Notes: generated by a model from the sequence alone, not told the origin. Shown: positions 34,015-56,745, counted from the first letter of the stretch. The stretch: 64,000 bases of DNA from Candidatus Multivorans sp. (GCA_965262355.1 OZ253534.1:1280845-1344844); one strand, 5' to 3'. Program-made: numbers and translations.

Positions 34015-34037
34015 CGGGATAGCGTGGCAGGAGCGAC

Positions 34038-36640: not shown

Positions 36641-36789
36641 CGCAATCGGCGCCGCGAGAGGGTCCGCTCATGCTGGCAAGGTCGGGACCGCCCGTCGGCC
36701 GCTTACGCGCCGAACCGGGCGACGACGATGGTAACCCGGAACGCGGGGCGCACGAGTGTCGCCGGCGCCTTCCCTCCCGCCTTCTCCTC

Positions 36790-37947: not shown

Positions 37948-37993
37948 CGAGGGGTCCGCCTCCTGACCTCAGTTCAGTTAAACAACTCTGCAT

Positions 37994-38005
37994 TGGTCGA
38001 CCAAC
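37994..38005. promoter_or_regulatory. perfect 12-bp palindrome TTGGTCGACCAA in the divergent Fic/imuA intergenic region (candidate operator)
   Basis: Read directly. The region is AT-richer than its surroundings. No canonical LexA box was recognised. Confidence 0.25.
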
Positions 38006-38205
38006 TATGAAAAGTTGCGGCGTAAGTTTTATCACAGGACCGCCAACCGCTTCCTTGTGCAGGAACTCTGAATAAGGGATCAGCCAGCCATCGGACCCGC
38101 TTGACCGCGATGACGACGCAGGCAGCAGTATCCGTTTACGCCCTAGTTGCGCTATGATGCTCTCTTCCCACTTTCCCGTTTCTCGCGTTCCGCGTCCTCG
38201 ACGCC

Positions 38206-39039
38206 GTGACTTCCCTGCCCGCAGCTCTCACCGACCCGCAGTGGCCGCGGTCGCTGGTGCGCCAGATCCGGCGCGGGCGGGAGCTGGTGGGCGACAGTCC
38301 TGCGGCCGGAATCCAGGAGACGGACGCCAAACTGTTCGCCACGCGGCTTGCTGGCGTCGACCGACTCCTCGATGGCGGGATCTGTCGCGGGCAGACGGTC
38401 GAGCTGGTCGGTCCCCGGAGCAGCGGCCGCTTCTCCCTGGTGCTGGAGCTCCTGGCCGGCGCCACCCAGAGCGGTGAATCGGCGGCGCTGGTCGACCTGG
38501 GAGATCACTTCGATCCGCAGGCGGCCGCGCGCACCGGAGTCGTCCTCGAACGGCTGCTCTGGGCGCGGCCCCAGCGACTGAAGCAGGCGCTGGGCAGCGC
38601 GGAAGTGCTGATCGGCGGCGGCTTCCCCCTGGTCGTGGTCGACCTCGGACTGCCCCCGGTTCCCGGCGGCCGCGGCAAGGAGTCGGCATGGCTGCGGCTG
38701 CGGCGGGCGGCGGAGGACCATCAGGCGGCGCTCCTGATCGCCAGTCCGTACCGCGCCGGCGGCACGGCGCCGCAGAAGATCCTCGACCTGGGATCCCACG
38801 CGTTGCCGGTCCGCGCCCTCTGGGGGCAGGCCGCGCCGAGGAGCCCGCGGTTACTCGACGGACTCGCGACCCGCCTGGAACTCGCCAAGTCGCGCGGCGA
38901 ACGGCCGGGCGCCGCGACCAACGTCGAACTGCGCGTTCTCACCAGCAGCCTGCGGCGCCCCCTACCCGTCGCGCCGCCCAGGCCGGCGGAGAGCAGCCGC
39001 GGCGGCTCGCCCGCCGAGGTGCTGAGACGTGCCGGCTAA
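38206..39039 (+). CDS. imuA: ImuA (SulA/RecA-fold SOS-mutagenesis protein)
   Basis: GTG start. ~277 aa. RecA-like core (LVGPRSSGRFSLVLELLAGA). Position immediately upstream of imuB, and dnaE2 in the same orientation. Confidence 0.7.
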   Translation: MTSLPAALTDPQWPRSLVRQIRRGRELVGDSPAAGIQETDAKLFATRLAGVDRLLDGGICRGQTVELVGPRSSGRFSLVLELLAGATQSGESAALVDLGDHFDPQAAARTGVVLERLLWARPQRLKQALGSAEVLIGGGFPLVVVDLGLPPVPGGRGKESAWLRLRRAAEDHQAALLIASPYRAGGTAPQKILDLGSHALPVRALWGQAAPRSPRLLDGLATRLELAKSRGERPGAATNVELRVLTSSLRRPLPVAPPRPAESSRGGSPAEVLRRAG

Positions 39040-40591
39040 GCGGAGATCCCGCATCGCCTGCATGAGGGCGGCGCTCTTTCCACTGGCCGCCTACCTGCGG
39101 GGGGCGCCGGAGCTCGCCCGGGAGGCGGTCGTGGTCCACGAGGGACCCTCGGCGCGGATCGTCGCCGCCTCCCGGCTGGCGCGCCGCGCGGGGGTGCGAC
39201 CGGGGCTGACCGTGGCCCAGGCCCGGAACATCGAGTCCGGCCTGGTCGACCGCGTCCGCGACCCGGAGCGCGAGCACACCGCGCAGGAGGTGCTGATCGA
39301 GATCGCCGGCGCCTTCTCGCCCCGGGTCGAGGACGGCGGCGAGGGCATGGTCTACCTCGACATCGCGGCCGATGACGAACACAACTTCGGCCAGACGATG
39401 ATGCGGGACATGGATGCCGCCGGCCTGCCCGGGCGGGTCGGCATCGCCGGCAGCAAGCTCGCGGCGCAGGCCGCGGCCGCCCTGCCGCGGTCGCCGAACG
39501 TCGTGGCGCCCCGGGGTGAAGCCCGGTTTCTGGCGCCGTTGCCGCTCAACGCCCTGCTCGAGAGCGGCGGCAGCGGTTCCGGCGACACGGCGCCGAAAGG
39601 CGACGACCAGGAGATCCTCCCCACGCTGAAGCTCTGGGGCCTGCGCACGGTCGGCGACCTGGCCGGCCTGCCGGCTGGCGAGGTCCACAGCCGTCTCGGC
39701 GAGCGCGGCACAGCGCTCCACGCCGCCGCCCGGGGCATCGATCCGGCGCCGCTCACTCCCCGTCCGCCGCCGCCCACCTTCCGCGAGTCGCAGACCCTGG
39801 AGTGGCCTATCGACAACCTGGAACCGTTCCTGTTCGTCGCCCGCGGGGCGGTCGAACGGCTCACCTCCCGGCTCGAAGCCCGAGGCATGGGCTGCAAGCG
39901 GCTCGAGCTGTCACTCAAGATCGAGCCCGAGGGCCTCCACGAGGTGGCGATCGAGCTGCCGGCGCCCACGCGCGAGGCCCGAACGCTGCTGTCGCTCGTC
40001 CGCCTCCACCTGGAGGCGGAACCGCCGCGGGCGCCGATCACCGGCATGCAGCTTTCGGCTCACCCCGATGCCCCGCGCCAGGCTCAACTCAGCCTGCTCG
40101 GCCCTGCCGCCCTGTCGCCCGATCGCCTGGCCGCAGTTACGGCCCGGCTACTCGCCCTGCTCGGGCCGAACCGGGTCGGCTCGCCGCGCACCCGGAACGG
40201 CCACCTGCCGGAACGCTTCCGGATCGCCGACTACGACCCGCCGCCGCCGCCACGCATCCGGCTCGAACCGCGGCCCGGCCGCGGCATGCTGGCGGTGCGC
40301 ACCCTGCGGCCTCCGGTCGAGATCGAGGTGCTGACCGTCGAGGCGGGCAAAACTCCCGCTCCCTGTCCCGAACCGGTGCGGATCAACCTTCTGCCCACCG
40401 AGGAACGCCATGTCCGGATCGAGGGTGCGGTCCGCACCGCTGCCGGGCCGTGGGAGATCGAGGAGGGCTGGTGGCGGGAGGTCCCGGCCCTGCGGGACTA
40501 CTGGGACGTGGAACTGCGAAACGGCGCCGTGTGCCGGATCTATCGTGACCGGGGTTCGGAACGGTGGTTCGCGGATGGAGTGTACGACTGA
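39029..40591 (+). CDS. imuB: ImuB (catalytically inactive Y-family polymerase homologue)
   Basis: Y-family palm/fingers-like N-terminal half lacking the acidic catalytic triad. 520 aa. Start may be at 39062 (MRAALFPLAAYL...). Confidence 0.75.
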   Translation: MPAKRRSRIACMRAALFPLAAYLRGAPELAREAVVVHEGPSARIVAASRLARRAGVRPGLTVAQARNIESGLVDRVRDPEREHTAQEVLIEIAGAFSPRVEDGGEGMVYLDIAADDEHNFGQTMMRDMDAAGLPGRVGIAGSKLAAQAAAALPRSPNVVAPRGEARFLAPLPLNALLESGGSGSGDTAPKGDDQEILPTLKLWGLRTVGDLAGLPAGEVHSRLGERGTALHAAARGIDPAPLTPRPPPPTFRESQTLEWPIDNLEPFLFVARGAVERLTSRLEARGMGCKRLELSLKIEPEGLHEVAIELPAPTREARTLLSLVRLHLEAEPPRAPITGMQLSAHPDAPRQAQLSLLGPAALSPDRLAAVTARLLALLGPNRVGSPRTRNGHLPERFRIADYDPPPPPRIRLEPRPGRGMLAVRTLRPPVEIEVLTVEAGKTPAPCPEPVRINLLPTEERHVRIEGAVRTAAGPWEIEEGWWREVPALRDYWDVELRNGAVCRIYRDRGSERWFADGVYD

Positions 40592-40619
40592 GGGTCTCGA
40601 CCGAAACACGCGCTGCTCC

Positions 40620-41738
40620 CTAGTGTACTGTCTCCAACATGGCTTTACCACGTGTAACCTTTGCGATGATGCTGTCGGCGGTGGCCGTCCAGACGAACGG
40701 CCGGGAGTTTTCGTTGCTGTGCTCCACGTAGTCGTAGATGGTCTTTACGAGGTCGTTGACGCTCTGGAATGCACCGCGCCGGATCGCCTTCGTGGTCAGA
40801 CCGCCCAGCCAGCGTTCGACCAGGTTGAGCCAGGGCGACGAAGTCGGAATGAAATGGAAGTGGAAGCGAGGCTTTCGCTCCAGCCATGCGCGCACGGCGG
40901 CGTGTTTGTGGGTCTGGTAGTTGTCCAGGATCAGGTGCAGGTCGAGATGCTTCGGGATCTCACGGTCGAGACGCTTGAGGAAACGGAGAAACTCCTGGTG
41001 GCGCTGCCGGCCCATGCACTCCGCGATCACCGTGCCCTCCAACACGTTCAGCGCAGCGAACAACGTCGTCGTCCCGTTGCGCTTGTAGTCGTGGGTCATC
41101 GTTCCCGCGCGGCCGCGCTTGAGCGGCAAGCCCGGCTGGGTCCGGTCCAGAGCCTGGATCTGGCTCTTCTCGTCCACGCACAACACAAGCGCGTTCTCGG
41201 GCGGATTCCGGTACAGGCCCACAACGTCCCGCAGCTTTTCCACGAACCTGGGGTCGTTGCTCAGCTTGAACGTCTTGACCAGATGGGGCTTCAGCCCGTG
41301 CGCCACCCAGATGCGCTGGACCGCCGCCGGACTGATGCCCTGGGCCCGAGCCATCGAACGCACGCTCCAGTGGGTCTGACCGGGCGGCTTCTCGTGCAGC
41401 GTCGCTTCGATCATTTTACGCACGACCGACTCCGAGAGCGGCGGCTTTCCGCAACCGCGGGGACGATCCCTGGTCAGCCCCGAAGGTCCGTCCTCCGCGA
41501 ACCGACGACGCCACAGCAGCACCGTGGGCCGCGAAACGCCGAGTTTCGCCGCAATCGCCCGATTGGCCGTGCCCTCCGCCGCAGCGAGCACGATCCGGCT
41601 ACGCCGGACGGTGCGTTGCGTCGTCGTCGGCGCCTCTACCCATTTCTTGAGAAGCGCTCGATCGCTCTCTTCGATGTGAAGTCGTTCCGCTGGTTCCCAC
41701 ATGAACGGAATACTGACGAACTTGCCCGAGACTGTCAA
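40620..41738 (-). CDS. IS630-family transposase (HTH + DDE_3)
   Basis: 372 aa. The transposase stop TAG overlaps the TA duplication. Confidence 0.9.
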   Translation of the reverse strand: MTVSGKFVSIPFMWEPAERLHIEESDRALLKKWVEAPTTTQRTVRRSRIVLAAAEGTANRAIAAKLGVSRPTVLLWRRRFAEDGPSGLTRDRPRGCGKPPLSESVVRKMIEATLHEKPPGQTHWSVRSMARAQGISPAAVQRIWVAHGLKPHLVKTFKLSNDPRFVEKLRDVVGLYRNPPENALVLCVDEKSQIQALDRTQPGLPLKRGRAGTMTHDYKRNGTTTLFAALNVLEGTVIAECMGRQRHQEFLRFLKRLDREIPKHLDLHLILDNYQTHKHAAVRAWLERKPRFHFHFIPTSSPWLNLVERWLGGLTTKAIRRGAFQSVNDLVKTIYDYVEHSNENSRPFVWTATADSIIAKVTRGKAMLETVH

Positions 41739-41759
41739 CCCATGTCGGAGACACTACAC
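40623..41759. mobile_element. IS630-family insertion sequence, copy A (1137 bp), with TA target duplication
   Basis: Terminal inverted repeats GTGTACTGTCTCC ... GGAGACACTACAC flanked by TA at 40621-22 and 41760-61. Confidence 0.85.
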
Positions 41760-41937
41760 TAGAAGCCCACGCCACTACGCCAGACACCACCTCTCTCGCT
41801 CGGTGAAAACGACACTCTCACTCTTGTGCTAGACACTCGGGCTGCTACACGACCACTTCGGTCAAGACACGCCTGCTCATACCCATCGGAACGACCGACC
41901 ACCAGGCGCCGGGCCTGCGCATGAACGAACAGAGGAT

Positions 41938-42720
41938 ATGAAGTTGCCACACCAAACGTACTTCTCCCAACGCACCGGCGTGAATCCACATCCCGATGGC
42001 CTACCGCTCGCTGACATCGTCGACCTCTTCCTGCGTGTCTACGAGGACCTAGAGACTGAGGGCTACTTCGATGAGGCGTTCGGTTTTGAATGCGTCGATG
42101 CAGGCCACATCGCGGGTCGCGTGAAGGACGTGGAATTGGAAGTCCTCTTGGCAATCCGAAAGAGAGAACTCTGGCCTATCGCTGATCATGCCGACGGGTA
42201 CAGCGAAGATGACCTCTTCGACCTACTGGAGTTCCTATTCCAACATGTGTCAAGACCGGTCGACGGTGAGAATCATAGTTGGGGTCAATGTGGGATGCAC
42301 TGGGAGACCTTTAACCGCGAGGACGGCCAGGAGCACTACCGGTCAAAGATGAACCAAGTCCTGGACCATTACGAACGAGCATTCGAGCTGTCGCCGGAGG
42401 GCCAGATCCTGCGCCGAGTAGAGGCAGGATTTGAGACGACCTTCGAAGCGGACATGCCATCAGAAGACCCCAAAGTGGTGTCACGTGTTGAAGCCGCAGT
42501 CTCCACCTACCGTCGACACCATTCGACAGTGGAGGATCGACGCCAAGCCGTCCGCGACTTGGCGGACGTACTTGAGCACCTTCGCCCTCAGATCAAATCA
42601 CTACTCACAAAGAAGGACGAAGGAGACCTCTTCAACATCGCCAACAACTTTGGAATCAGGCACCACAACGACAAGCAGCAAACCGGATACGACACCGCAC
42701 TGTGGCTCAGTTTGAGCTTG
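41938..42720 (+). pseudogene. hypothetical protein gene (low GC), 3' end interrupted by an IS3 insertion
   Basis: The coding-looking frame runs into the IS3 left inverted repeat at ~42719. No family recognised. Confidence 0.45.
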
Positions 42721-42766
42721 ACCCGTTTTGGTGGACACCTCATTCTTGGAAGAGGAGGTATCCACG

Positions 42767-43075
42767 ATGTCGAGAAGAAGGAGCCGGTACCCAGCAGAGT
42801 ACCGGCAGCAGATGGTGGATCTGGTCCGGTCCGGGCGGAGCCCGGACCAACTAGCCCGCGAGTTCGAGCCGTCAGCGCAGTCGATCCGGAACTGGGTCGC
42901 CCAGGCGGACCGGGACGAGGGTCGCCGCAGCGACGGGAGCACGACGGCGGAGCGTGAGGAGTTGCGCCGTCTGCGCCGGGAGAATCGCCGGCTGCGGGAA
43001 GAGCGGGAGATCCTGGCAAAAGCAACGGCCTGGTTCGCTCGGGAGACGGAACCGAAGGGGTCTTCCGGTTCATGA
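42767..43075 (+). CDS. IS3 OrfA (HTH transposase N-terminal part)
   Basis: MSRRRSRYPAEYRQQMVDLVRSGRS ... leucine-zipper region. Ends 4 nt inside orfB. Confidence 0.8.
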   Translation: MSRRRSRYPAEYRQQMVDLVRSGRSPDQLAREFEPSAQSIRNWVAQADRDEGRRSDGSTTAEREELRRLRRENRRLREEREILAKATAWFARETEPKGSSGS

Positions 43076-43920
43076 GAGCGCACCGGGCCGAGTTCCGCGT
43101 CACGACGATGGCCCGCGTGCTCGGCGTCTCCACGAGCGGGTTCTACGCCTGGCTGAGGCGCCCGCGGTCGGCCAGGGAGAAGTCGGACACCGCTCTCGCC
43201 GAGCGGGTGCGGGCGATTCACGAACGGAGCCGAGGGACCTACGGGGCGCCGAGGATTCAGGCTGAACTGGCCGACTGTGGGTTCGCAGTGAGCCGCATGC
43301 GCGTTGCCAGACTGATGCGAGAGTCCGGCCTGGCGGGCATCAGCCGCCGCAAACGGCCGACGACGACCCGTCGCGCCGCCTCGGTTCGCCCGGCGCCGGA
43401 CCTCGTTGATCGGCAGTTCGTGGCCGAGACCCCGGATCGGCTGTGGGTCGCGGACATCACTTACGTTCCGACGCTTGCCGGGTTCGTGTACCTGTCGATC
43501 GTCCTGGACGTATTCAGTCGGCGAATCGTCGGCTGGGCCATGAACTCTTCTCTGGCAACCGACCTCGTGCTCAGCGCTCTGGAGATGGCGATTGCCCAGC
43601 GGCGACCCGAGTGCGTGATCCACCACTCCGATCAAGGCAGCCAGTACGCTTCCCTAACGTTCGGGAACCGCTGCCGCGATGCCGGCATCGCACTCTCGAT
43701 GGGTTCCGTCGGAGATTGCTACGACAACGCCATGGCCGAGAGCTTCTTCGCCAGCCTCGAGTGCGAGCTGCTCGACCAGACAACGTTCCGAAATCACGCC
43801 GAAGCGAAGGCGGAACTCTTTCGCTACATCGAGGGCTGGTACGATACCCATCGTCGCCATTCGGCGATCGGACAACGCTCACCCGTCAACTTCGAAGAGG
43901 CGTACCGAGAGGCCGCCTGA
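43072..43920 (+). CDS. IS3 OrfB (DDE integrase-core transposase)
   Basis: D..D..E catalytic core (WVADITYV ... HSDQGSQY ... ESFFASLE). Confidence 0.9.
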   Translation: MRAHRAEFRVTTMARVLGVSTSGFYAWLRRPRSAREKSDTALAERVRAIHERSRGTYGAPRIQAELADCGFAVSRMRVARLMRESGLAGISRRKRPTTTRRAASVRPAPDLVDRQFVAETPDRLWVADITYVPTLAGFVYLSIVLDVFSRRIVGWAMNSSLATDLVLSALEMAIAQRRPECVIHHSDQGSQYASLTFGNRCRDAGIALSMGSVGDCYDNAMAESFFASLECELLDQTTFRNHAEAKAELFRYIEGWYDTHRRHSAIGQRSPVNFEEAYREAA

Positions 43921-44045
43921 TTCCCGAAACACAAACTGTCCACGAAACCGGGGCAACTCCAGTTGGATGTTCTACTTCTATCTTGCGACTATCCACGTCG
44001 TGCTCCGCAAGATCAAGCATGAGGGCAACTCGTAGTGTTAAGCTC

Positions 44046-45242
44046 CTACACCACGGTACGGGACTCTGGACCACGTAAACAGCGACGCACGAAGTCGTCG
44101 AACCAGGGTACCGTAAAGTCAACCTCACCCCAACGCGGCGAGTAGCAGAGCCCCTTCTTGATCAGCTTGTCGCGCACAGGTCCCACGCCCGGTGTGTCCT
44201 TGCCCATGGTTGCCGCGACACGACCTGAAGCATACGGACCCTCGCCAAGCGACGCCATGGCGACCAGGTACTCGCGCTCTGAATCGGTCGTGCGGTCGAT
44301 CCGGACTCGGAAGAAGCCGGTATCCAGTTCATCGACCGCAGTCGGCACCGCGGTATCCACGTCCCTGGCAGTGATTTTGGCCGGACCATCCGCCAGGTCC
44401 CACGCCTGCTTGCCGAACTCCTGAAGGAAGTAGGGGTAGCCCCGAGTCTCGCCGACGATTCGGTCGAGCGCGTCCGGCTGCCAGACGACTCCTTCTTCTT
44501 CAGCCGGCTCGACCAGCGCTGCTCTGGCGTCGCCGTCGTCCAAACTGTTGATCGACTGGAAGTTGAAAAGGCGCTCCGCGTACGATTTCGCTTCGCCGGC
44601 GAGGGCCGGCACCGACGGCAGGCCAGCGGCGACCAACATGAATGGAAGCTGCTCCTGATTGACTTGGTGGAGGCCAACGATCAGGGCCCCCAGGTCCTTC
44701 CGCTTCAGGTACTGGACCTCATCCAACGTGATCAACACGCCGCGCTCTCGCTCCCGGGCTACGTCGCCGACCTCGGTGAACAGACCAGACAGGTCCTCGT
44801 CCAGAAGCCCGGAATCTGCCCAGCCGGGCACGGGGTCCAGTCCGACGGTCACATCGCCGCCGTCCGGAAGGTTCCAGCGCATCTGGAAGGACTTCAGGAC
44901 TCCCAACGCACGCCGGCCCCGCTCGGCCAGGTTGTGCGCCGGTGAAAGCCGCAAGAGCACCTTGCGCACCAGTCCGGCCACAGCTTGGGGGAGTCGCATC
45001 CCCTCACTAGCCTCAAGCGGCTGGCAGACCCAGTCCCGCTCTTGGCCGAGGCGACGAAACTCCCGCAAGAGGACCGTCTTCCCGACGCCGCGCAGGCCAG
45101 TCAGAATCACGCTCTTGGCGGAACGGCCGAGCCTGAGACGCTCGATCGCGACACGGATGATCTCAAGCTCAGCATCACGACCTACGAGTGCGGGCGGCGG
45201 ACTGCCGGCACCTGGGCTGTAGGGGTTCCGGATCGGGTTCAT
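44046..45242 (-). CDS. AAA-type ATP-binding protein (ORC/Cdc6-like AAA+ with C-terminal winged-helix/DUF234-like)
   Basis: NPYSPGAG ... LVGRDAELE ... LTGLRGVGKT Walker A and DEVQ Walker B. 398 aa. Confidence 0.8.
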   Translation of the reverse strand: MNPIRNPYSPGAGSPPPALVGRDAELEIIRVAIERLRLGRSAKSVILTGLRGVGKTVLLREFRRLGQERDWVCQPLEASEGMRLPQAVAGLVRKVLLRLSPAHNLAERGRRALGVLKSFQMRWNLPDGGDVTVGLDPVPGWADSGLLDEDLSGLFTEVGDVARERERGVLITLDEVQYLKRKDLGALIVGLHQVNQEQLPFMLVAAGLPSVPALAGEAKSYAERLFNFQSINSLDDGDARAALVEPAEEEGVVWQPDALDRIVGETRGYPYFLQEFGKQAWDLADGPAKITARDVDTAVPTAVDELDTGFFRVRIDRTTDSEREYLVAMASLGEGPYASGRVAATMGKDTPGVGPVRDKLIKKGLCYSPRWGEVDFTVPWFDDFVRRCLRGPESRTVV

Positions 45243-45376
45243 CGGACGATTATAGGGTTCTGCCCGATTTATATCTAGATTAGCTATAAACTAGGCAGAT
45301 CGCTATAAACGCGAGACGACGCAACGACTGCTCACGCTTGGCGTGTAAGCAGCCCGGTAGTCCGAACGCGCCAGCC
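45243..45376. promoter_or_regulatory. AT-rich segment upstream of the ATPase gene with direct repeats GCTATAAAC (x2) and a CTAG ... CTAG symmetry
   Basis: ttatagggttctgcccgatttatatctagattagctataaactaggcagatcgctataaacgcg. A striking AT island in ~70% GC DNA. Confidence 0.3.
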
Positions 45377-45766
45377 TCAATCGCCTGGCAGGGTGGGTCG
45401 CGGCACCTGCCCGCCAATCACCTGCTCCGCCACCACCCGGCCGCCGATCAGGTGTTCCTGGATCACTCGTTCGAGCACCTCGGGGGTGCAGCCCCAGTAC
45501 CAGACGCCCTCCGGGTAGACGACCGCGATCGGGCCGGCGTCGCAGATCCGCAGGCAGTTCGCCTTCGTCCGCATGACCGTGCCGGACTCCGTCAGGCCGA
45601 CCTCGACCAGGCGGCGCTTGAGGAACGCCCACGACTCGAGTGACGTCTCCAGCTCACAGCACTTCGGCGTCGTCTGGTCGCAGCACAGGAAGATGTGCCG
45701 CTGCACGTTCGAGATGCCGATGGCCTCGGCTTTGCGACGGGCACGGTCGAGCGCTTCGCGGTCCAT
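45377..45766 (-). CDS. thioredoxin-like (2Fe-2S) ferredoxin-domain protein
   Basis: Cys cluster [10 protein letters not shown] ... CLRICD. Start taken at MDREALD (45766) rather than 45820, to avoid start codons overlapping the divergent gene. Confidence 0.55.
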
Positions 45767-45818
45767 GGCGCCGATGATTCCATGACCGGTGCGGAGCCCG
45801 GCGATAGTCTGCTCCGCC

Positions 45819-46196
45819 ATGAAGCTGTTCGAGGCCGCCTATCCGTTCCAGGACGATGTCCTGGCTCTGCCGGTCGAGGATCTCGACGCGACTGCGAAGT
45901 GGTACGCGAGTGCCTTCGGCCTCCAGGAGGTCGAGCGACGTGAAGAGCCCGTGCCGACGGTCATCCTCGAACGCGACGGCGTCCGGATCGGCTTCGCGAT
46001 CAACGGCGGCGACGCGAGCATGGACGGCGCGGCGATCCTGGTCACCGACATCAAGCGAGCGCGGGCCGAACTCAAGGGCAACGGCGTCAAGGTCAAGAAC
46101 TGGCGCATCGACAAGCGGGACGGGAAGAAGTTCCGGGTCTTCTTCGTCGTCGCGCCGGATGGTCTCTGCTACTATTTCCATCAGCCGGTCCTGTAA
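45819..46196 (+). CDS. VOC-family (glyoxalase/bleomycin-resistance fold) protein
   Basis: ~125 aa. Paired beta-alpha-beta-beta-beta modules; H/E metal-ligand positions plausible. Confidence 0.65.
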
Positions 46197-46288
46197 TCTC
46201 TACGACCCGCCAACGATGGGCGACCGCGTAGAATCAGCGGCGACGCCAACGCCCGCTACGGGCTTTCAGCCAGCACGGTATAGGCCTG

Positions 46289-46624
46289 ATGCTCACTCTC
46301 GACCCCGATGAACAGACTTGGCTGGATGAGTACCGGGGAGCGCTCCGAGACGCCCACGCCGAGGCTGTTCTGCGCCTGGTCGTCTACGGGTCCAAGGCCC
46401 GCGGCGACGCCCATGCAGAGAGCGATCTGGATCTCCTGCTCATCGTGCGAGACGATGCCGCCGACCTGAAACGGCCACTCAGGCGCATCGGGTACGAACT
46501 GGCCGCGCCCGCGCTGGTTCACCCGTCCATCATGGCGTACACGCAAGCGGAGTGGAACGCGCTTGAGCGCTATCGCTCGACCTACCACGCCTCAGTCGAG
46601 CGCGAAGGCATCCCGGTGCTTTGA
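46289..46624 (+). CDS. MNT-type nucleotidyltransferase (antitoxin-like)
   Basis: YGSKARGDAHAESDLDLLLI matches the GSx9-13DxD minimal-nucleotidyltransferase motif. Confidence 0.8.
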   Translation: MLTLDPDEQTWLDEYRGALRDAHAEAVLRLVVYGSKARGDAHAESDLDLLLIVRDDAADLKRPLRRIGYELAAPALVHPSIMAYTQAEWNALERYRSTYHASVEREGIPVL

Positions 46625-47043
46625 ACAAGGAAGCGGTGATAGCGGAGTGGCGACGGGCCTTGACTTCCCTGGGGGCAGCCGAGGTCCTCGTGCGGGCGGC
46701 CCACCATGAGGACGCTGTCGGCACCTCGTACTATGCGATCTTCCACGCGGCGAAGGCGGCCTTAGCCGTCCACAGTGTCGAAACATCGACCCACGCGGGA
46801 CTGCGGAGCATGTTCGGCCTGCATTTGGTGCAAGAAGGCGAGATAGAACCTCGGTGGGCAGCCGACCTCGGCGAAAGTCTCGACGATCGCGTGAAGGCCG
46901 ACTACAACGTCTTCGCTCACTTCTCGGAGGAAGACGCCAGCGATCAGCACGATCGAGCGAGGGTGTTCCTGAAACGTATTCGGGACTACCTCCTGGCGAG
47001 GGGGTTGACCGAGAACGAGATTCCAACCGCCCCAGCCGACTGA
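46621..47043 (+). CDS. HEPN-domain protein (toxin-like partner of the MNT)
   Basis: TTGA start/stop overlap with the MNT gene. All-helical ~140 aa. Classic MNT-HEPN pairing. Confidence 0.7.
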   Translation: MNKEAVIAEWRRALTSLGAAEVLVRAAHHEDAVGTSYYAIFHAAKAALAVHSVETSTHAGLRSMFGLHLVQEGEIEPRWAADLGESLDDRVKADYNVFAHFSEEDASDQHDRARVFLKRIRDYLLARGLTENEIPTAPAD

Positions 47044-47055
47044 CTGGCACAGCCG

Positions 47056-48711
47056 ATGGTCACTACTCCACCTCCGCAGCCTGGATCCGCCCAGCTCATG
47101 CGGCTCTCCAATGCCCTCGTAGTCTACAACCGGGCCTTCCGAAGTCATCTCAGCGCTGTCCTGCGGAAAAACCTCGGCCGCGATTGGTGGCAGCAGGGGA
47201 TCGTCCGAAGGATCTCCACGATTCAGGCAGACATCGAACACCTCGGCCTTGAGATCGAGACCGACATTGACGCCTTGTCGGTACTGGAGCCGAAGCACTA
47301 CCCTTGGATCGTCAGAGAACACCGGGAGCACTTCCAGAGGCTGTTCAACAAGCGCAGCTTCCACATCGCCAAGGTAGGAGGCAGCCCGACAACCCTCATG
47401 CATGAGGTGGCTGACTGGCGAAACGTGAACGCCCATCCGCCCGCACGCGACCTCGACCCTGCGGTCGTTGACCGGGCTGTCGACTCGATGCTCCGTCTTG
47501 TGGGCCTCTTCGACCCAGAAGCACATGACGAACTATCCAAGCTGTCGGGCAAGGCGAAGATCAAAGGAGAGCCGGAACACCGGCCCAATATCGTCTCCGG
47601 AGCCGAGAGCAAAGCGAAGAGCATCGTCGCAAAGGCGGAAGACCTGGCGCGCACTATCCGGAACGACGCCGAACGGGAGGCGATGGACATTCAGAAGGAC
47701 GCGGAGGCCCAAGCCGAAGCCATTCGGGCCGGAGCGCAGGAGAAAGCCAGGTCCAATCGGGCTTCAAGACCGAATACCTTCGTTCCTCGCGAAGATCGCG
47801 AGAAGATTGACCGTGTTCAGATGCGCGTGCGGCAACTCGAAAACGAGAAGGCGAGCGCACAGTCCGAACTCAAAACGGCACGCCGCAACATCATTGTCCT
47901 TGAGAAACGCGCGCGTTCGATAGAAGACGACGCCAAGAGGAAAGCTGGCAGAACCCTGCGAACGGCACGAGAAGAGGCCGAGACCATCCGTCTGCGACCG
48001 CAGCAGAGTGAGACCTTCCAGTCGCTTCTCAAAGAGGCCGAGGAAAAAGCGGCGCAACACGCCGCAGACATCCTGCAAGACGCAAACGCTGCGCGACAGG
48101 AGACCCTCGCCGGAACGAAAGGTCAAGCCGAGAGGATCCTCGCCGAAGCCCGTAGGGAACTGGCCACCATTCTCGCTGACGCCAATGAGAAAGAGCGCGG
48201 GGTTCTGGCGAAAGCGGAGCGCAGGGCAACCGAGATCCGCGAGGAGGCACGGCGGGCCCCAGGGAGAATCCGCGGCGAAGCTCACAGTGTCGAACCGCCA
48301 GCTCGGGACGAACCAGGCCGTGAGAAGCTCAAGGTAGCCCAAAGCAGAGCCGCAGACGACTTCCGGAGGCGTTTCAAGCCCGCGCGGTCGGGAAACGGCC
48401 ACCTCCGCTCTTTCGGCATCGACGGTTGGTGGCTCAACTGCTGGGTGGGTAGAACGAATGGACTACCTCGCGCCAGTGTCTTCGCCCCAGCCAAGACCAT
48501 CAACGGGAGGCGAATCGAGGCCCAGGACACACCCTTGATGGAGAGCGTATGCGCCAGCGAGGAGGGAGCCTTTGAATGGCTGCGCGAGAGGGATGAAAGT
48601 GGTCAGATCCGCCGGGAGGCGCGTCGTGCGATCCATTTGTTCGAGAGAGAGGAGCGCGACGACGAACCCACGCTCGAGAGCGATGCGCTCGACGACGACA
48701 TTCCGTTCTGA
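47056..48711 (+). CDS. 551-aa protein: N-terminal Swt1-like HEPN (R-N-x3-H) domain fused to a long ATP-synthase-b-like coiled coil and a unique C-terminal domain
   Basis: EVADWRNVNAHP matches the Swt1-type HEPN Rx4H motif. Residues ~170-400 are E/A/R/K-rich heptad repeats. Confidence 0.55.
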   Translation: MVTTPPPQPGSAQLMRLSNALVVYNRAFRSHLSAVLRKNLGRDWWQQGIVRRISTIQADIEHLGLEIETDIDALSVLEPKHYPWIVREHREHFQRLFNKRSFHIAKVGGSPTTLMHEVADWRNVNAHPPARDLDPAVVDRAVDSMLRLVGLFDPEAHDELSKLSGKAKIKGEPEHRPNIVSGAESKAKSIVAKAEDLARTIRNDAEREAMDIQKDAEAQAEAIRAGAQEKARSNRASRPNTFVPREDREKIDRVQMRVRQLENEKASAQSELKTARRNIIVLEKRARSIEDDAKRKAGRTLRTAREEAETIRLRPQQSETFQSLLKEAEEKAAQHAADILQDANAARQETLAGTKGQAERILAEARRELATILADANEKERGVLAKAERRATEIREEARRAPGRIRGEAHSVEPPARDEPGREKLKVAQSRAADDFRRRFKPARSGNGHLRSFGIDGWWLNCWVGRTNGLPRASVFAPAKTINGRRIEAQDTPLMESVCASEEGAFEWLRERDESGQIRREARRAIHLFEREERDDEPTLESDALDDDIPF

Positions 48712-48715
48712 GGGT

Positions 48716-50434
48716 CAGCGGCCAATAGGTCGCTGCTTCCCGCTCGTGACGCTCCTTCTGGTCACGCCGGCCATCTCCGCCACCGCCCAGGACTTCGCCG
48801 AACTCCTGGAGATCCGGCGCGTCAGGGCAACCCTGGACCTGAGCCAGGTGCCGGAACCGGACCTGACCGGGGTCCCCGCGGTGGACGCGCGGCGCCTTCG
48901 GGACTACCGGGCGCTCACAGCCGGCGCTCTGGAACACGCCGCCGAACCGCTGCAGGCGCAGTTGGCGGTGAACAGCTACGGCGATCTCTGCGTGCGTTAC
49001 CTGCACTACGAGCTTCACGACACGGCCGCCGCCTGCCTGGACCAGATCCGGGAGCTGGCGCCGGCGGACTTCCAGTTTGCCTACTTCCAGCTCTTGCTGG
49101 ACATTGCGACCGGCGACCTGGAAGGGGCTCTCTCCAGCGCCGAGCAGGCGCTCGTCATCCGGCCCGACGACCCGCCGGCCTTGATCCGCCTGGCCGAACT
49201 CCACGTCGCGACCGGCGACGTCGATGCCGCCGAAGCCGCGTACGAAGCGGCGCTTGCGGCCTATCCGGAGAGCGCGACGGCCCGCGTCGGCCTCGGTTAC
49301 ATCGCGATGGAACGCGGCGACCCGGCGCGCGCGCTCGAGATCTTCCAGGAAGTCGCTGCGTCCCAGCCCGAGGGCAGCGAGGCGAACCACCACGTCGGTC
49401 TCGCCTACCGCACCCTCGGCGACGCCGACCGGGCTGCCGAGGCGTGGCGCCTGAACCAGGACATCCTGATCCCGATGTACGACCCGCTACTCGAACGCCT
49501 CAGGCCGCTTGAGGAAGACGTGATCCTGCCCCTGGACCGCGCCGTCGCCGCCGCCGCGGAGGGCGACCACGAGCGGGCGGTCGGGCTGTTTGAGGAGATC
49601 CTCCAAGCGAACGAAGCGGACGACGAGGCCCACTTCCGCCTGGCCGGCTCGCTGCTGGTGTCGGGCGACTCGGCACGCGGCCAACGGCACCTGCGCCGGG
49701 CCATCTCCCTGAACGCGGACCACGCCGGGGCCCACTTCGCTCTCGCCATGGTCCTCGCCCAGGCCGGACGCCGCGCCGAGGGCGCCCAGCACCTGGAACG
49801 TGCGGCCGATCTCGCACCCGAGAACCTGACCTGGCGTCTTCAGCGGGCACAGATGCGGGCCGCCTCGGGCAACACCGCCGGCGCCATCGACGAACTCAGG
49901 CAGGTCGTTGCCCTCGACCCCGGGATGATCGAGGCGCGAAGGATGCTCTCCGCCGTGCTGGTCGGCACCGGCCGGACGGAAGACGCCGCCGCCCAGTTGC
50001 AGGCTCTGGTCGCTCTGACGCCGGACGACCTGCAGGCGCGGTTCAATCTCGGACTGATGCTGTTCGAGACCGGCCGCTACGCGGAGGCGCGTGTGGCTCT
50101 CGACGAAGCTCTGGGGCGCTTCCCCAGCGATGTCGCCACCCGCCACCTGCTGGCGCGATTGCTGGCTACGAGTCCCGACGACGCAGCGCGGGACGGCGCC
50201 CGGGCGGTCGAGCTGGCTCAGTCGGTGGTCGACGAACAACCCGCACTCGACCACCTCGAGACGCTGGCGATGGCCCTGGCCGAGGCCGGGCGGTTCGACG
50301 ACGCGATCGCCTGGCAGCAACGGGCGCTGGAACGGGAACGGGCCGAGGCCGGTGGCAACTCGTCCCAGCGGCTGGATCGGCTGGCGCTCTACCAGGCGCG
50401 CCAGCCGCTGCGGGCGCCGCGGCGGCAGAACTAG
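48716..50434 (+). CDS. secreted TPR-repeat protein
   Basis: Signal peptide (PLVTLLLVTPAISATAQD); the start is uncertain because the 5' region overlaps the previous gene end. More than 10 TPR-like repeats. Confidence 0.6.
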   Translation, partial: QRPIGRCFPLVTLLLVTPAISATAQDFAELLEIRRVRATLDLSQVPEPDLTGVPAVDARRLRDYRALTAGALEHAAEPLQAQLAVNSYGDLCVRYLHYELHDTAAACLDQIRELAPADFQFAYFQLLLDIATGDLEGALSSAEQALVIRPDDPPALIRLAELHVATGDVDAAEAAYEAALAAYPESATARVGLGYIAMERGDPARALEIFQEVAASQPEGSEANHHVGLAYRTLGDADRAAEAWRLNQDILIPMYDPLLERLRPLEEDVILPLDRAVAAAAEGDHERAVGLFEEILQANEADDEAHFRLAGSLLVSGDSARGQRHLRRAISLNADHAGAHFALAMVLAQAGRRAEGAQHLERAADLAPENLTWRLQRAQMRAASGNTAGAIDELRQVVALDPGMIEARRMLSAVLVGTGRTEDAAAQLQALVALTPDDLQARFNLGLMLFETGRYAEARVALDEALGRFPSDVATRHLLARLLATSPDDAARDGARAVELAQSVVDEQPALDHLETLAMALAEAGRFDDAIAWQQRALERERAEAGGNSSQRLDRLALYQARQPLRAPRRQN

Positions 50435-50484
50435 GAGCGGCTGAGACTCTTGCCTTCCATTGCCGCCCGGTTTACGCTTACCGG

Positions 50485-53400
50485 ATGGCCCCCAAGGTAC
50501 CCAAGGTCGACGTACCGGCCCGCAACATGGGCCTGTCCGGCTCGATGCGCAAGGGCAGCAGCCGCGGCGGCGGTAGCGGCAACGGTCTGCTCGACGCCCG
50601 GGGCGAGCCGAACCCCGGCTACGCCGCGCCGGGTGCGGTCAAGGAGCAACTGCGCCGGCGCCAGTTCCAGTCTCCGCCCAAGCGCCGGCGGGGGGCCCCG
50701 CCCTACGCCGAACTCCACACCGCTTCGTCGTTCTCCTTTCTGCGCGGCTCGTCGCAACCCGAGGACCTGGTGGCGCGCGCGGCGGCGCTGGGGCTGCCGG
50801 CAGTCGCCCTGCTCGACCGGAACGGCGTCTCCGGCGCGCCGCGCTTCTACAAGGCGGCGCGTGAGGCGGGAATCCGGGCGCTGGTCGGCGCCGAGGCGGT
50901 CATCGACCGGCCGCAGGCGTCCACGGCGTCGCGGCAGCGCGAGGAGCGGCCGATGCTGGACGACCAGGAGACCCGCGTCCACCTCCTGGTGCGGAGTCGA
51001 CAGGGCTATCGCAACCTCTGCCGCCTGCTGACCGCCGGAGCGCTCAACCACCCCAAGGGCGAGGCCCGGATCGACTGGACGCTGCTCGAGGAACACGCGG
51101 CGGGGCTCCACTGCCTGGCCGGCGCCGCAACCGATCCGGTCGGCAGGGCGCTGGCGCGGGAAGGGTTGGAGGCCGCCCAGCGGCAGCTCGAACGGCTGCA
51201 CGCCGTTTTCCCCGGCCGCCTGCACGTGGAGCTCGCTCGGCACGGCATCCGCGCCGAGGAACACCGCAACCAGGCCCTGGTCCGGATGGCGCAGGGGCTC
51301 AAGGCGCCGGTCGTGGCCACCGGCGGCGTGCGCTACGCCACCGCCGCCGACAAGCCCCTCTACGACCTGATGACCGCGATCCGGCACCACGTGACGGTCG
51401 ACGACGCCGGCGCGCGCCTCGCCCGTGAGCGCCAGCGCCGCCTCAGGAGCCCGGAGGAGATGCACCGGCTGTTCGCCGATCTGCCGCAGGCGGTCCACGC
51501 CGCACACGATCTGGCCGCTGAACTCGACTTCACCCTCGCCGACCTCGGCTACCGCTTCCCGGACTATCCGCTGCCCGCCGGCGAGACCGCGATCTCAACC
51601 CTCCGCGAACTGACCTGGCAGGGGGCGCGGGAGCGCTTCCGGCCGCTCACCGCCCGCGCCGGGGCACAGCTCGAGAAGGAACTCGCGCTGATCGGGAAGC
51701 TCGACCTCGCCGGCTACTTCCTGATCGTCTGGGACATCGTCCGCTTCTGCAAGGAGCAGCGGATCTTCGCCCAGGGCCGCGGCTCGGCCGCCAACTCCGC
51801 GGTCTGTTACGCACTCTCCATCACCGCGGTGGACCCGGTGAAGATGGACCTCCTGTTCGAGCGCTTCCTGTCCGAGGAACGCGGCGAGTGGCCGGACATC
51901 GACATCGACCTGCCGTCCGGCGACCAGCGCGAGAAGGTGATCCAGTACGTCTACCGGCGCTACGGCCGGCACGGCGCGGCGATGACCGCGAACGTGATCA
52001 CCTACCGCGATCGTATGGCCGCGCGCGAGGCGGCCAAGGCGCTCGGGTGCTCCAAGTCCCAGGTCGACCAGCTGGCCAACTTGAGCCGCGGCGACAGCAA
52101 GGAGATGGACAAGGAGTTGACCGAACTCGGGTTCGATCCCCGCGACCGGCGCATCCAGCTCTTCATCCGCCTGTGGCGGCAGCTCCAGAACCATCCCCGT
52201 CACCTGGGGCAGCACTCGGGCGGCATGGTGCTCTGCGCCGGCCGGCTGGACGAGATCGTGCCGCTTGAACCGGCGGCGATGGAGAACCGGGTCATCGTCC
52301 AGTGGGACAAGGACGACTGCGCCGATCTGGGGATCATCAAGGTCGACCTGCTCGGCCTCGGCATGCTGAACGCGCTCGAGGAGGCGGTGCCCCTGATCCG
52401 CCGGCACGAGGGCACGGAGATCGACCTCGCCCACCTGCCGCCCGACGACCCGGCGGTCTACGAGATGATCTGCCGCGCCGACACGGTCGGGGTCTTCCAG
52501 ATCGAGAGCCGGGCGCAGATGGCGTCCCTGCCGCGCCACCGGCCATACAAGTTCTACGACCTCGTGATCCAGATCGCGATCATCCGTCCCGGCCCGATCG
52601 TCGGCCGCATGGCCCATCCCTTCTTCGAGCGCCGGGTGGGCCGCGAGGAGGTCACCTACCCTCACCCGCTGCTCGAGCCGATCCTGCGCCGCACCCTCGG
52701 CGTGCCGATCTTCCAGGAGCAGATTCTCAAGATCGCCATGGTCGCGGCCGGGTTCTCCGGCGGCGAGGCGGAGGACCTGCGGCGCGCGATGGGCTTCAAG
52801 CGCTCCGTCGAGCGTATGCAGCAGATCGAGCACCGGCTGCGCTCCGGCATGAACGAACGCGGCATCCAGGGCGTTGCCCAGGAGCAGATCGTCAAGGCGA
52901 TCACGTCGTTCGCGCTCTACGGCTTCCCCGAGTCGCACTCCGCCAGCTTCGCCCTGATCGCCTACGCCAGCGCCTACCTGAAGCGTCACCACCCGACCGC
53001 CTTCTTCCTGTCGCTCCTGAACGCCTGGCCGATGGGCTTCTACCACCCGGCGACCCTGGTCCGCGAAGCGCAGCGCGCGGGCAGCGTCGTGCTGCCGATC
53101 GACGTGAACGAATCGGGGGTGAGGTGCCGCTGGCAGGACCGGCCGGCGGAGAACGACGCCGGTGTGCAGACCGGCGAGCCGCCCCCGCCGGGCGCGATCC
53201 GCCTCGGGCTCCGTTACATCAAGGGGATGCGGCGCGAAGCGGCGGAACGGATCGAGGCCGAGCAGGCGGCGAGGCGGTTCCGTTCGATCGAGGATCTGGC
53301 CGAGCGCTGCCGCCTGCGCCGGAACGAACTCGTGGCCCTGGCGTCCATTGGCGCGTTGCCCGGGCGCGGCCGGCGCGCGGCACTGTGGCAGGCGGCCCAG

Positions 53401-53880
53401 GTCGAGAAGCCGAAGGGCCCCCTGTTCGCGGATCTCTCAACCGCGACTCCCTCGCCGCTCGACGAGATGACAGAGGTGGAAGAGACCGCAGCCGATTTCG
53501 CCATCGCCTCGATCACCACCGGCCCTCACCCGATGGAGTACTACCGCCGGGCGCTCGACCGCCGCCGCGTCGTGACCGCCGCCGCACTCCCGGACCGGCC
53601 CGCCGGCCGCCGCGTGCGCACCGCCGGCTCGGTCATCGTCCGCCAGCGCCCGGGCACCGCCCGCGGCCTCCTGTTCCTGACCCTGGAGGACGAGACCGGC
53701 ATGAGCCAGACCATCGTCATGCCGGATCAGCTCAAGAAGCACCGCCGCACGATCGTCTCGTCCTCCGGCCTGATCGTCGAAGGCGTGCTGCAGAAGAAGG
53801 ACGGCTCGCTATCCGTCAAGGCGGACAAGTTCTGGCCGATCGACCGGCTGGAGCGGATCCCGAGCCACGATTTCAGGTAG
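50485..53880 (+). CDS. dnaE2: error-prone DNA polymerase DnaE2 (ImuC)
   Basis: PHP domain (YAELHTASSFSFLRGSS), Pol III alpha core, OB-fold. 1131 aa. Same strand as imuAB. Confidence 0.9.
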   Translation: MAPKVPKVDVPARNMGLSGSMRKGSSRGGGSGNGLLDARGEPNPGYAAPGAVKEQLRRRQFQSPPKRRRGAPPYAELHTASSFSFLRGSSQPEDLVARAAALGLPAVALLDRNGVSGAPRFYKAAREAGIRALVGAEAVIDRPQASTASRQREERPMLDDQETRVHLLVRSRQGYRNLCRLLTAGALNHPKGEARIDWTLLEEHAAGLHCLAGAATDPVGRALAREGLEAAQRQLERLHAVFPGRLHVELARHGIRAEEHRNQALVRMAQGLKAPVVATGGVRYATAADKPLYDLMTAIRHHVTVDDAGARLARERQRRLRSPEEMHRLFADLPQAVHAAHDLAAELDFTLADLGYRFPDYPLPAGETAISTLRELTWQGARERFRPLTARAGAQLEKELALIGKLDLAGYFLIVWDIVRFCKEQRIFAQGRGSAANSAVCYALSITAVDPVKMDLLFERFLSEERGEWPDIDIDLPSGDQREKVIQYVYRRYGRHGAAMTANVITYRDRMAAREAAKALGCSKSQVDQLANLSRGDSKEMDKELTELGFDPRDRRIQLFIRLWRQLQNHPRHLGQHSGGMVLCAGRLDEIVPLEPAAMENRVIVQWDKDDCADLGIIKVDLLGLGMLNALEEAVPLIRRHEGTEIDLAHLPPDDPAVYEMICRADTVGVFQIESRAQMASLPRHRPYKFYDLVIQIAIIRPGPIVGRMAHPFFERRVGREEVTYPHPLLEPILRRTLGVPIFQEQILKIAMVAAGFSGGEAEDLRRAMGFKRSVERMQQIEHRLRSGMNERGIQGVAQEQIVKAITSFALYGFPESHSASFALIAYASAYLKRHHPTAFFLSLLNAWPMGFYHPATLVREAQRAGSVVLPIDVNESGVRCRWQDRPAENDAGVQTGEPPPPGAIRLGLRYIKGMRREAAERIEAEQAARRFRSIEDLAERCRLRRNELVALASIGALPGRGRRAALWQAAQVEKPKGPLFADLSTATPSPLDEMTEVEETAADFAIASITTGPHPMEYYRRALDRRRVVTAAALPDRPAGRRVRTAGSVIVRQRPGTARGLLFLTLEDETGMSQTIVMPDQLKKHRRTIVSSSGLIVEGVLQKKDGSLSVKADKFWPIDRLERIPSHDFR

Positions 53881-56736: not shown

Positions 56737-56745
56737 AGGCCTGGA

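Follow-up and report, generated by a model that had tools for sequence, protein, structure and literature searches.

Candidatus Multivorans carries a split imuA-imuB and dnaE2 translesion locus, probably of ancestral layout, bordering a defence island

Three mutasome genes in two units

ImuA, ImuB and DnaE2 are all required together for mutasome function (PMC10421592; PMC6511836). In the window, the whole 64,000-nt stretch of DNA analysed here, which is a chromosomal segment of Candidatus Multivorans (Acidobacteriota, Thermoanaerobaculia), imuA-imuB and dnaE2 lie on the same strand, with 9,893 nt between the imuB stop and the dnaE2 start. The sequence-only reading had described this separation, proposed that inserted mobile and defence-like DNA had broken a normally contiguous, LexA-controlled cassette, and considered co-regulation doubtful. 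We asked whether the cassette was in fact broken in this lineage and whether its parts could still be regulated together. The separation itself was confirmed, and every gene named in that reading was recovered at or near the position given for it.

The first unit consists of two genes that share 11 nt where their reading frames meet. The product of imuA (38206-39039, +) is a RecA-like accessory protein (Pfam RecA, 6.3e-14) encoded directly 5' of imuB, as expected of an ImuA, and an identical protein has a precomputed match to MT3502_N; the NCBIfam ImuA (1.2e-8) and ImuA' (5.4e-7) models both matched weakly, below cut-off. The product of imuB (39029-40591, +; Pfam IMS, 8.5e-12, and IMS_C) is an inactive Y-family polymerase homologue: in an alignment with E. 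coli DinB, the active-site residues D103 and E104 fall opposite G106 and M107, a loss of the catalytic acids. It scored far under the cut-off of all NCBIfam DinB models. Reading by eye, with the beta-clamp-motif consensus for ImuB as a guide (PMC6511836), we noted a clamp-motif-like QLSLLG and a Trp-rich C-terminus, WEIEEGWW...RWFADGVYD.

The third gene, dnaE2 (50485-53880, +), encodes an error-prone Pol III alpha homologue with PHP, DNA_pol3_alpha, finger, HHH_6 and OB domains (Pfam). It matched NCBIfam NF004225 over the full model length at 1250 bits (curated cut-off 939), which places it in the error-prone subfamily. A 92-nt relic of dnaE2 (56648-56739, +), corresponding to amino acids 855-884 and 94.6% identical to 53046-53137, is fused directly to native sequence 3' of the gene; the junction corresponds to a 763-nt deletion relative to L004. 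Since three minus-strand genes stand between imuB and dnaE2, dnaE2 is a unit separate from imuAB and a shared transcript is impossible. The locus thus lacks the one-operon contiguity of the canonical form, which the split forms, accepted members of the group, do not have either.

To place this layout we used 33 relatives holding both imuB and dnaE2 (ImuB 73-98% identical). The two genes are apart in 33/33, by 2,624-8,727 nt, and three metagenome contigs of the family (L044, L052 and L053) agree with the split layout. A core of ferredoxin (-), VOC (+) and TPR (+) genes keeps its order in 31 of the 33, with the ferredoxin gene inside the gap in 31/33 and the TPR gene in 32/33. We observed a contiguous imuA-imuB-dnaE2 cassette only in L039, a distant Acidobacteriota MAG (ImuB 34% identical). 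The premise of a contiguous cassette broken in this lineage therefore fails, and the gene order shared by relatives is the very finding that the sequence-only reading had said would speak against it. Since the parts are apart in all 33 relatives and each has its own conserved promoter region, we regard the split as the old, ordinary layout of the family. The locus is probably the normal, ancestrally split ImuA-ImuB / DnaE2 translesion (mutasome) form of Ca. Multivoraceae and their relatives.

The core genes could be delimited further. The ferredoxin (45377-45820, -), a thioredoxin-like 2Fe-2S protein (NCBIfam, 2.5e-14, below cut-off), is 84-97% identical in the 31 relatives and probably starts near 45766. 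The VOC gene (45789-46196, +) encodes a protein of the glyoxalase/bleomycin-resistance superfamily (Pfam Glyoxalase, 8.6e-7, a match that exceeds the gathering score); its frame was chosen by GC3 pattern, and two longer ORFs over it, 45654-46181 (-) and 45856-46311 (+), were rejected as shadow frames. For the TPR protein (Pfam TPR families, down to 3e-41) the longest ORF spans 48572-50434 (+), and translation may in fact begin as far as ~200 nt 3' of 48572, since many alignments to relatives begin ~46-73 aa inside this ORF. Divergent from imuA is a Fic/SoFic-type gene (36790-37947, -; Pfam Fic_N and Fic; PADLOC SoFic, 1.2e-118), a conserved neighbour in most relatives (81-90% identical).

Conserved upstream blocks and regulation

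Each unit is preceded by a conserved block. Upstream of imuA (38134-38158, +), the element GTTTACGCCCTAGTTGCGCT (38134-38153) runs into TATGAT (38153-38158), a putative -10 of imuA; the block is near-invariant in 38 loci, and sequence further 5' is not alignable. The dnaE2 block (50450-50484, +) comprises TTGCCT (50450-50455) and the element ATTGCCGCCCGGTTTACGCT (50459-50478), which includes TACGCT (50473-50478) and ends 6 nt before the ATG. The arrangement TTGCCT-17 nt-TACGCT-6 nt-ATG suggests a leaderless mRNA. This block is kept in 33 loci, whether the TPR gene or a GYD gene precedes it; since the GYD gene separates TPR from dnaE2 on the opposite strand in 18 relatives, dnaE2 requires a promoter of its own. 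A simple sigma-70 scan called neither the imuA nor the dnaE2 promoter.

The two blocks have a ~20-nt skeleton in common, GTTnnCGCCnnnnTTnCGCT. At ≤1 mismatch it occurs in the window only at the two upstream sites, against an expectation of 0.17, and 2 matches were reached in 3/100 shuffles. Across 855 kb of window and loci, ~66 of 75 occurrences of TTTACGC are imuA or dnaE2 upstream sites. Conservation of the elements exceeds that of 4-fold degenerate sites only moderately (0.88 vs 0.77). When the family consensus blocks were compared, 20/27 positions matched, a level reached by 2/3000 shuffles; it is the family consensus that carries this similarity, and the blocks to compare were chosen after it had been seen.

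We did not find a conserved GTTC-N7-GTTC or CTG-N10-CAG box. The earlier statement that imuA lacks a canonical LexA box thus held, the sole match being a non-conserved CTG-N10-CAG at 38068. The palindrome noted in its place, TTGGTCGACCAA, is present at 37993-38004 and is not conserved in relatives. A lexA gene is absent from the window and the loci. The doubt cast on co-regulation is not supported, in that a conserved block of its own precedes dnaE2 and shares an element with that of imuA. Since the two blocks are the only sites in the window and share the skeleton, co-regulation of imuAB and dnaE2 through duplicated sites is plausible from sequence.

In the mechanism that we propose, imuAB and dnaE2 would each be transcribed from their own conserved promoter, and in each block a tandem pair of TTnCGC-type half-sites, spaced 12 nt, would cover the spacer and the -10 region. 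A single factor would bind both elements, in all probability a LexA-like repressor that responds to damage. The three proteins would then be co-induced and would assemble in trans, much as happens with the split cassette of mycobacteria. More specifically, we tentatively suggest that the element could be the operator of the Thermoanaerobaculia DNA-damage regulator, either a LexA with an undescribed direct-repeat motif or a non-LexA protein.

Alternatively, imuAB and dnaE2 might be regulated independently, or dnaE2 expressed constitutively, and the blocks resemble each other through general promoter features or common descent. We consider this rather unlikely. The window's own two sites are indeed only modestly alike (16/27 positions, a level that 199/3000 shuffles attain), and the shared element is not palindromic. 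In addition, a strict metagenome scan gave no further regulon members, with no additional sites upstream of other repair genes (4 family matches and 16 others, apparently intragenic where examined), and the mycobacterial parts answer to two overlapping regulators (PMC10421592). However, the positions common to both blocks are those that do not vary within either set throughout the family, the consensus match is rare among shuffles, and both elements stand at the same place with respect to the putative -10 and the start. The joint requirement for all three proteins likewise speaks for common control.

The shared element might instead be the site of an alternative sigma factor or activator (CTTCC-N16/17-CGCT), with co-regulation by positive control, a reading to which we give a low probability. 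As read from the consensus, CTTCC and CGCT stand 16-17 nt apart in both blocks, neither of which fits the sigma-70 consensus well. Direct-repeat half-sites are typical of response regulators, and LexA-independent damage regulators occur in other phyla (PMC10421592; PMC12288472). Against this, a good TATGAT lies directly 3' of the imuA element, and the present sequence evidence fits activation and repression alike. We know of no alternative-sigma promoter consensus that CTTCC and CGCT would fit.

Mobile and defence-like DNA in the gap

The view that the intervening DNA is largely mobile or defence-like proved correct: ~6.9 kb of the 9.9-kb gap is accessory. Its G+C content is 58-65%, compared with 74-75% for imuAB and 69-75% for TPR-dnaE2. 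Cargo sits at two junctions, imuB|ferredoxin and VOC|TPR, and its make-up differs between relatives. Cargo is patchy among the 33 (AAA in 15, MNT in 13, HEPN in 8, Swt1-like in 2), and the same junction elsewhere holds an AAA_15/21 and PIN pair, a methylase, an S41 peptidase, IS4 or ISL3. The window's particular set (IS630, the IS3-interrupted PDC-S32-like gene, the AAA_16 ATPase, MNT/HEPN and a Swt1-like gene) brings the gap to 9.9 kb.

IS630 copy A (40623-41759, -; transposase 40620-41738, -; Pfam DDE_3, 1.2e-23, with HTH_23, HTH_29 and HTH_32) begins ~30 nt past the imuB stop and is flanked by a TA duplication (40621-40622 and 41760-41761) in a CTAG target. Copy B (54581-55717, +) is its inverted repeat with one mismatch. 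The ends, GTGTACTGTCTCC and GGAGACACTACAC, and the arrangement C-TA-[IS]-TA-G at both copies identify the IS630 family. The IS3-family element (42713-43961, +) is a unit of 1,249 nt with the two overlapping ORFs of that family, orfA (42728-43075; HTH_Tnp_1, 2.2e-10) and orfB (43072-43920; rve, 3.5e-24, and HTH_21); L028 holds a 99% identical copy and L063 two copies. It cuts a PDC-S32-like candidate defence gene into a 5' part (41938-42712, +; PADLOC PDC-S32, 3e-12) and a 3' remainder (43962-44035, +), which encodes SSWMFYFYLATIHVVLRKIKHEGNS up to the stop and matches the C-terminus of an intact 283-aa homologue at the equivalent position in L052.

Beyond it lies the accessory AAA_16 ATPase (44046-45242, -; Pfam, 1.3e-16), with a weak Orc1/Cdc6 Walker-A match and no match in PADLOC or PDB. 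The adjacent MNT (46289-46624, +; NTP_transf_2, 1.6e-7) and HEPN (46621-47043, +; HEPN, 6.8e-15) genes overlap by 4 nt and form a toxin-antitoxin pair (PADLOC PDC-S09). The accessory Swt1-like HEPN / coiled-coil protein (47056-48711, +) matched Pfam HEPN_Swt1 below the gathering score (E = 9.3e-4; 19.9 bits against 27.5); it has homologues in L031 and L033 and no match in PADLOC or PDB.

Could this DNA have recently broken a contiguous, LexA-controlled operon, leaving dnaE2 promoterless and uncoupled from the damage response? The IS630 copy next to imuB, the IS3 in the following gene, the low-GC accessory DNA and the contiguous cassette of L039 would fit such an event. However, all 33 relatives are split, almost all with identical core genes; the conserved upstream block belongs to dnaE2 itself in every relative; and imuA, imuB and dnaE2 are all full length and 85-98% identical to the relatives' genes. 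We therefore judge a recent break very improbable. Even less credible is a composite transposon bringing dnaE2 and defence genes beside imuAB on the 15.1-kb stretch between the inverted, near-identical IS630 copies (40.6-55.7 kb), since relatives without these copies have ferredoxin-VOC-TPR-dnaE2 in the same order and in the same orientation to imuAB and to the TPR/FG-GAP gene downstream, so that the segment does not look like a mobile unit foreign to its flanks. Moreover, copy B has simply inserted into a minus-strand gene whose halves continue a single reading frame on both sides, copy A interrupts intergenic DNA of the expected length, and the sibling contigs L063 and L064 carry the same copy A. 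From the sequence comparison, mobile and defence genes appear to have accumulated after the split and not to have caused it.

The locus is on the chromosome, at a defence island edge. Known defence genes adjoin it (SoFic, an Eco57I-type restriction-modification enzyme, ApeA-HEPN and PIN-TPR-GreABC). As in defence islands and integration hot spots, patchy defence-type genes and insertion sequences occupy fixed junctions between conserved genes, whereas the cargo here is mostly candidate defence (PDC-S32, PDC-S09 and the AAA_16 ATPase outside PADLOC). No recombinase or attachment site marking a hot spot was identified at the locus.

Relation to known cassettes

Split cassettes that are still co-regulated have already been described (PMC3919608; PMC10421592), and this locus is a further example of the type. 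Mycobacterium tuberculosis and M. smegmatis have an imuA'-imuB operon and, elsewhere on the chromosome, dnaE2 under a control region of its own; DNA damage nevertheless induces the parts together, and they work as a single complex (PMC10421592; PMC3919608). The two-gene imuA-imuB unit and separate dnaE2 on the same chromosome are alike here. In contrast to mycobacteria, the distance between the parts is just 2.6-10 kb; they share a strand and enclose a fixed trio of unrelated genes, and ImuA is of the RecA-like type, matching the ImuA model and the ImuA' model only weakly. To our knowledge, the candidate element is unlike the SOS box of mycobacteria and also unlike their PafBC-associated promoter motif.

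With the LexA-controlled operon of Caulobacter crescentus and Pseudomonas the locus shares the three families, their order and orientation (PMC6511836; PMC9578287), as well as an inactive ImuB and a DnaE2 of the error-prone subfamily. It differs in that minus-strand genes preclude a single transcript and that neither type of LexA box is conserved. The alphaproteobacterial LexA operator, a direct repeat GTTC-N7-GTTC, lies at the imuA promoter (PMC8565304; PMC9578287). Similarly, candidate tandem half-sites starting GTT, about one helical turn apart, lie over the putative imuA promoter here, with a period of 12 nt instead of 11 and a half-site TT(n)nCGC instead of GTTC, in a different phylum. 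If the proposal is correct, the GTTnnCGCCnnnnTTnCGCT operator would be the first entry point to the damage regulon of a class that is uncultured and known mostly from MAGs.

Genes of the interval between imuA and dnaE2

ORF listing and profile searches bore out every gene that the sequence-only reading had named. We observed that imuA (38206-39039) encodes a RecA-like protein with weak matches to the ImuA and ImuA' models, and that its reading frame overlaps by 11 nt that of imuB (39029-40591). ImuB carries the Y-family IMS and IMS_C domains, and its G and M residues align with the DinB catalytic pair D103/E104. The dnaE2 product (50485-53880) scored 1250 bits against the error-prone polymerase model, for which the curated cut-off is 939. 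IS630 copy A (40623-41759; CTAG target, TA duplication) starts ~30 nt past the imuB stop and is followed by a PDC-S32-like candidate defence gene that is interrupted by an IS3 (42713-43961); an intact 283-aa homologue of this gene occupies the equivalent position on a related metagenome contig. Next in order are an AAA_16 ATPase and a thioredoxin-like 2Fe-2S ferredoxin, both on the minus strand, and then a VOC protein (45789-46196, plus strand), an MNT/HEPN pair, a Swt1-like HEPN protein (weak match) and a TPR protein. The third-position G+C pattern backs the VOC frame and marks the ORFs at 45654-46181 (minus) and 45856-46311 (plus) as its shadow frames. Rfam, tRNA and PDB sequence searches and an exact look-up of DnaE2 gave no matches.

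Upstream of imuA lies an 18 kb defence island (20371-37947) encoding a 1361-aa PIN-TPR-GreABC-type protein, an ApeA-type HEPN protein, an Eco57I-type restriction-modification enzyme, a DUF222-HNH protein and SoFic. Within it, a tandem duplication of ~884 nt (33956-35400; copies 98-100% identical) spans the 3' end of the DUF222-HNH gene and the DNA after it, and is missing from the sibling contig L063.

Layout of the locus among relatives

An ImuB scan with one genome per species yielded 42 loci, nearly all from Ca. Multivorans, Ca. Multivoraceae and other Thermoanaerobaculia MAGs, with many complete chromosomes of 3.7-5.1 Mb among them. Window proteins were mapped onto these loci, 33 of which hold both imuB and dnaE2 (ImuB 73-98% identical). 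The two genes are 2,624-8,727 nt apart in 33/33, and a core of ferredoxin (minus), VOC (plus) and TPR (plus) genes recurs between them (ferredoxin in 31/33, TPR in 32/33). We found imuA, imuB and dnaE2 contiguous only in a distant Acidobacteriota MAG (L039; ImuB 34% identical). The sequence-only reading had taken a normally contiguous cassette to be split by mobile and defence-like DNA, a premise at odds with the split in every relative that has both genes; it had also held that an ancestral order in relatives would speak against it, and our synteny comparison found such an order for the core genes. A recent disruption of a contiguous operon is rejected on the synteny of these relatives. In this family a split between imuAB and dnaE2 is the norm, and it does not point to lost regulation.

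The window-specific part of the gap is the amount of accessory DNA, ~6.9 kb at 58-65% G+C; outside it, G+C is 74-75% in imuAB and 69-75% from TPR to dnaE2. The remaining genes are patchy even in the closest relatives, with AAA_16 present in 15 of the 33 loci, MNT in 13, HEPN in 8 and the Swt1-like gene in 2. At the same junction, other relatives carry an AAA_15/21 and PIN pair, a DNA methylase, an S41 peptidase, and IS4 or ISL3. The two-gene AAA_15/AAA_21 ATPase and PIN-domain module sits at the imuB|ferredoxin junction in three of them (L003 11703-13531, L026 15418-17379 and L029 11545-13518); L026 also has the DNA methylase there and is devoid of ferredoxin, VOC and TPR. In 18 relatives of one subclade (L007 14165-14485, minus, and 17 others), TPR and dnaE2 are separated by an opposite-strand GYD-domain gene. 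The window's subclade is without it, and its TPR-dnaE2 spacing is 50-220 nt.

The amount of accessory DNA also differs between strains, as two sibling ENA contigs with identical ImuB (L063 13685-21285 and L064) carry 6.35 kb extra between two IS3 copies that are 98.6% identical to each other. This segment holds two IS4-like transposase genes and three ORFs. The window's single IS3 is identical to the second of these copies; either a deletion of the IS3 x IS3 kind or the collapse of a repeat during assembly would account for it.

IS630 copies A and B (54581-55717) differ by one base, are inverted and enclose 12.8 kb including dnaE2. We rejected an IS630-bounded composite transposon: relatives without these IS copies have the inner genes in colinear order, and copy B has simply inserted into a gene. 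Recombination between the copies would flip dnaE2 relative to imuAB; we rejected such an inversion, since the flanks bear no trace of it and one reading frame continues across those of copy B. The interrupted gene lies on the minus strand (55722-56650, going on left of copy B towards 54572) and encodes a signal-peptide-like N-terminus and two ~148-aa tandem repeat domains (75% identical DNA), with no Pfam match. An adjoining 214-aa ORF has a homologue 3' of dnaE2 in L010 only, among the related loci. Farther right, a 92-nt dnaE2 relic (56648-56739, plus strand; equivalent to aa 855-884) shares 94.6% identity with the resident gene. The relic runs directly into the native downstream flank, which in the related locus L004 comes after the dnaE2 stop, and the junction corresponds to a 763-nt deletion relative to L004, with microhomology of GGCC. 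It is the record of an earlier rearrangement and suggests that the dnaE2 3' end was replaced or duplicated when the minus-strand genes now at 53.9-56.6 kb came in.

Sequences upstream of imuA and dnaE2

It is implausible that one transcript runs from imuB to dnaE2, given that the other strand encodes the IS630 transposase, AAA_16 and ferredoxin. Family-wide alignments of the imuA and dnaE2 upstream regions revealed two sharply conserved blocks, with 71 sites in all, in otherwise unalignable DNA. The imuA block reads ...TTCCnGTTTACGCCyTAGTTGCGCTATGATG... (window element 38134-38153, TATGAT 38153-38158), and its transcript would be expected to start near 38165. The dnaE2 block, CTCTTGCCTTCCGTTACCGCCTGATTTACGCTTAnCGGATGG, abuts the ATG (window TTGCCT 50450-55, TACGCT 50473-78, ATG 50485), and we infer from its sequence a -35 / 17-nt spacer / -10 promoter that would start on the ATG and give a leaderless mRNA. 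A simple sigma-70 scan called neither the imuA nor the dnaE2 promoter.

Set against each other without gaps in a single register, the family consensus blocks share 20/27 positions, a level reached by 2/3000 shuffles for blocks that were picked after their resemblance had been noticed. The agreeing positions are those invariant within each set; together they define the skeleton GTTnnCGCCnnnnTTnCGCT, in which two TT(n)nCGC half-sites stand in tandem at a spacing of 12 nt. At <=1 mismatch the skeleton occurs in the window only at the imuA and dnaE2 sites (expectation 0.17), and ~66/75 TTTACGC heptamers in 855 kb of window and loci are imuA or dnaE2 upstream sites. The window's own two sites match at 16/27, which 199/3000 shuffles reach and which is not significant alone. 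Conservation of the elements is only moderately above that of 4-fold degenerate sites (0.88 vs 0.77). A strict-motif metagenome scan returned this family's imuA and dnaE2 sites and 16 other matches, which appear intragenic in the cases examined, and no new regulon members. A likeness of the imuA promoter in the outgroup L039, seen by eye, was not supported by the shuffle test.

The absence of a canonical LexA box upstream of imuA, as first read, agrees with our scan upstream of imuA, dnaE2, VOC and TPR for E. coli, Gram-positive, alpha, Bdellovibrio, Geobacter, cyanobacterial, Verrucomicrobia, Bacteroidetes and Xanthomonas types, where the lone match is a non-conserved CTG-N10-CAG at 38068. 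Searches by tblastn with E. coli and B. subtilis LexA queries found no lexA in the window or loci, and an Acidobacteria LexA motif was not found in the literature searched. LexA motifs vary widely, with direct repeats among them (PMC8565304; PMC9578287). The palindrome noted earlier, TTGGTCGACCAA, exists; it is not conserved and lies nearer the Fic start than imuA. At least 14 relatives have a Fic-imuA inverted repeat with a ~16-bp stem, GAACyTTGAATAAGsG...CsCTATTCAAAGTTC (for example L017 8893-8930 and L009 8972-9010), in which one pair covaries (GC in 8, CG in 5 sequences). The window retains its left arm only (38062-38083), and, in loci with a more distant Fic, a lone half-site precedes the Fic start by ~75 nt. 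A Fic-linked operator or hairpin is one possible role for this repeat.

Taken together, the best-supported reading, which we favour with modest confidence on sequence grounds, is that imuAB and dnaE2 are co-regulated by duplicated control sites.

Significance for the family

In the standard example of a split cassette, the mycobacterial imuA'-imuB/dnaE2, the parts are still induced jointly by DNA damage (PMC10421592). The locus described here adds another split case from a little-studied class, with a lineage-specific set of genes in between and a candidate operator whose sequence is unfamiliar. Viewed without relatives it resembles a mutagenesis operon just broken by mobile DNA, and the value of the comparison is corrective: the observation of the genes and their split stands, its interpretation does so only in part, and the layout is an ordinary one. 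The locus is of low to moderate interest, chiefly for the shared element, a concrete and testable candidate damage-response operator where none is described for the class in the literature searched. The imuB|ferredoxin and VOC|TPR junctions may also be of use, as places where defence-type genes reproducibly occur as cargo in Ca. Multivoraceae.
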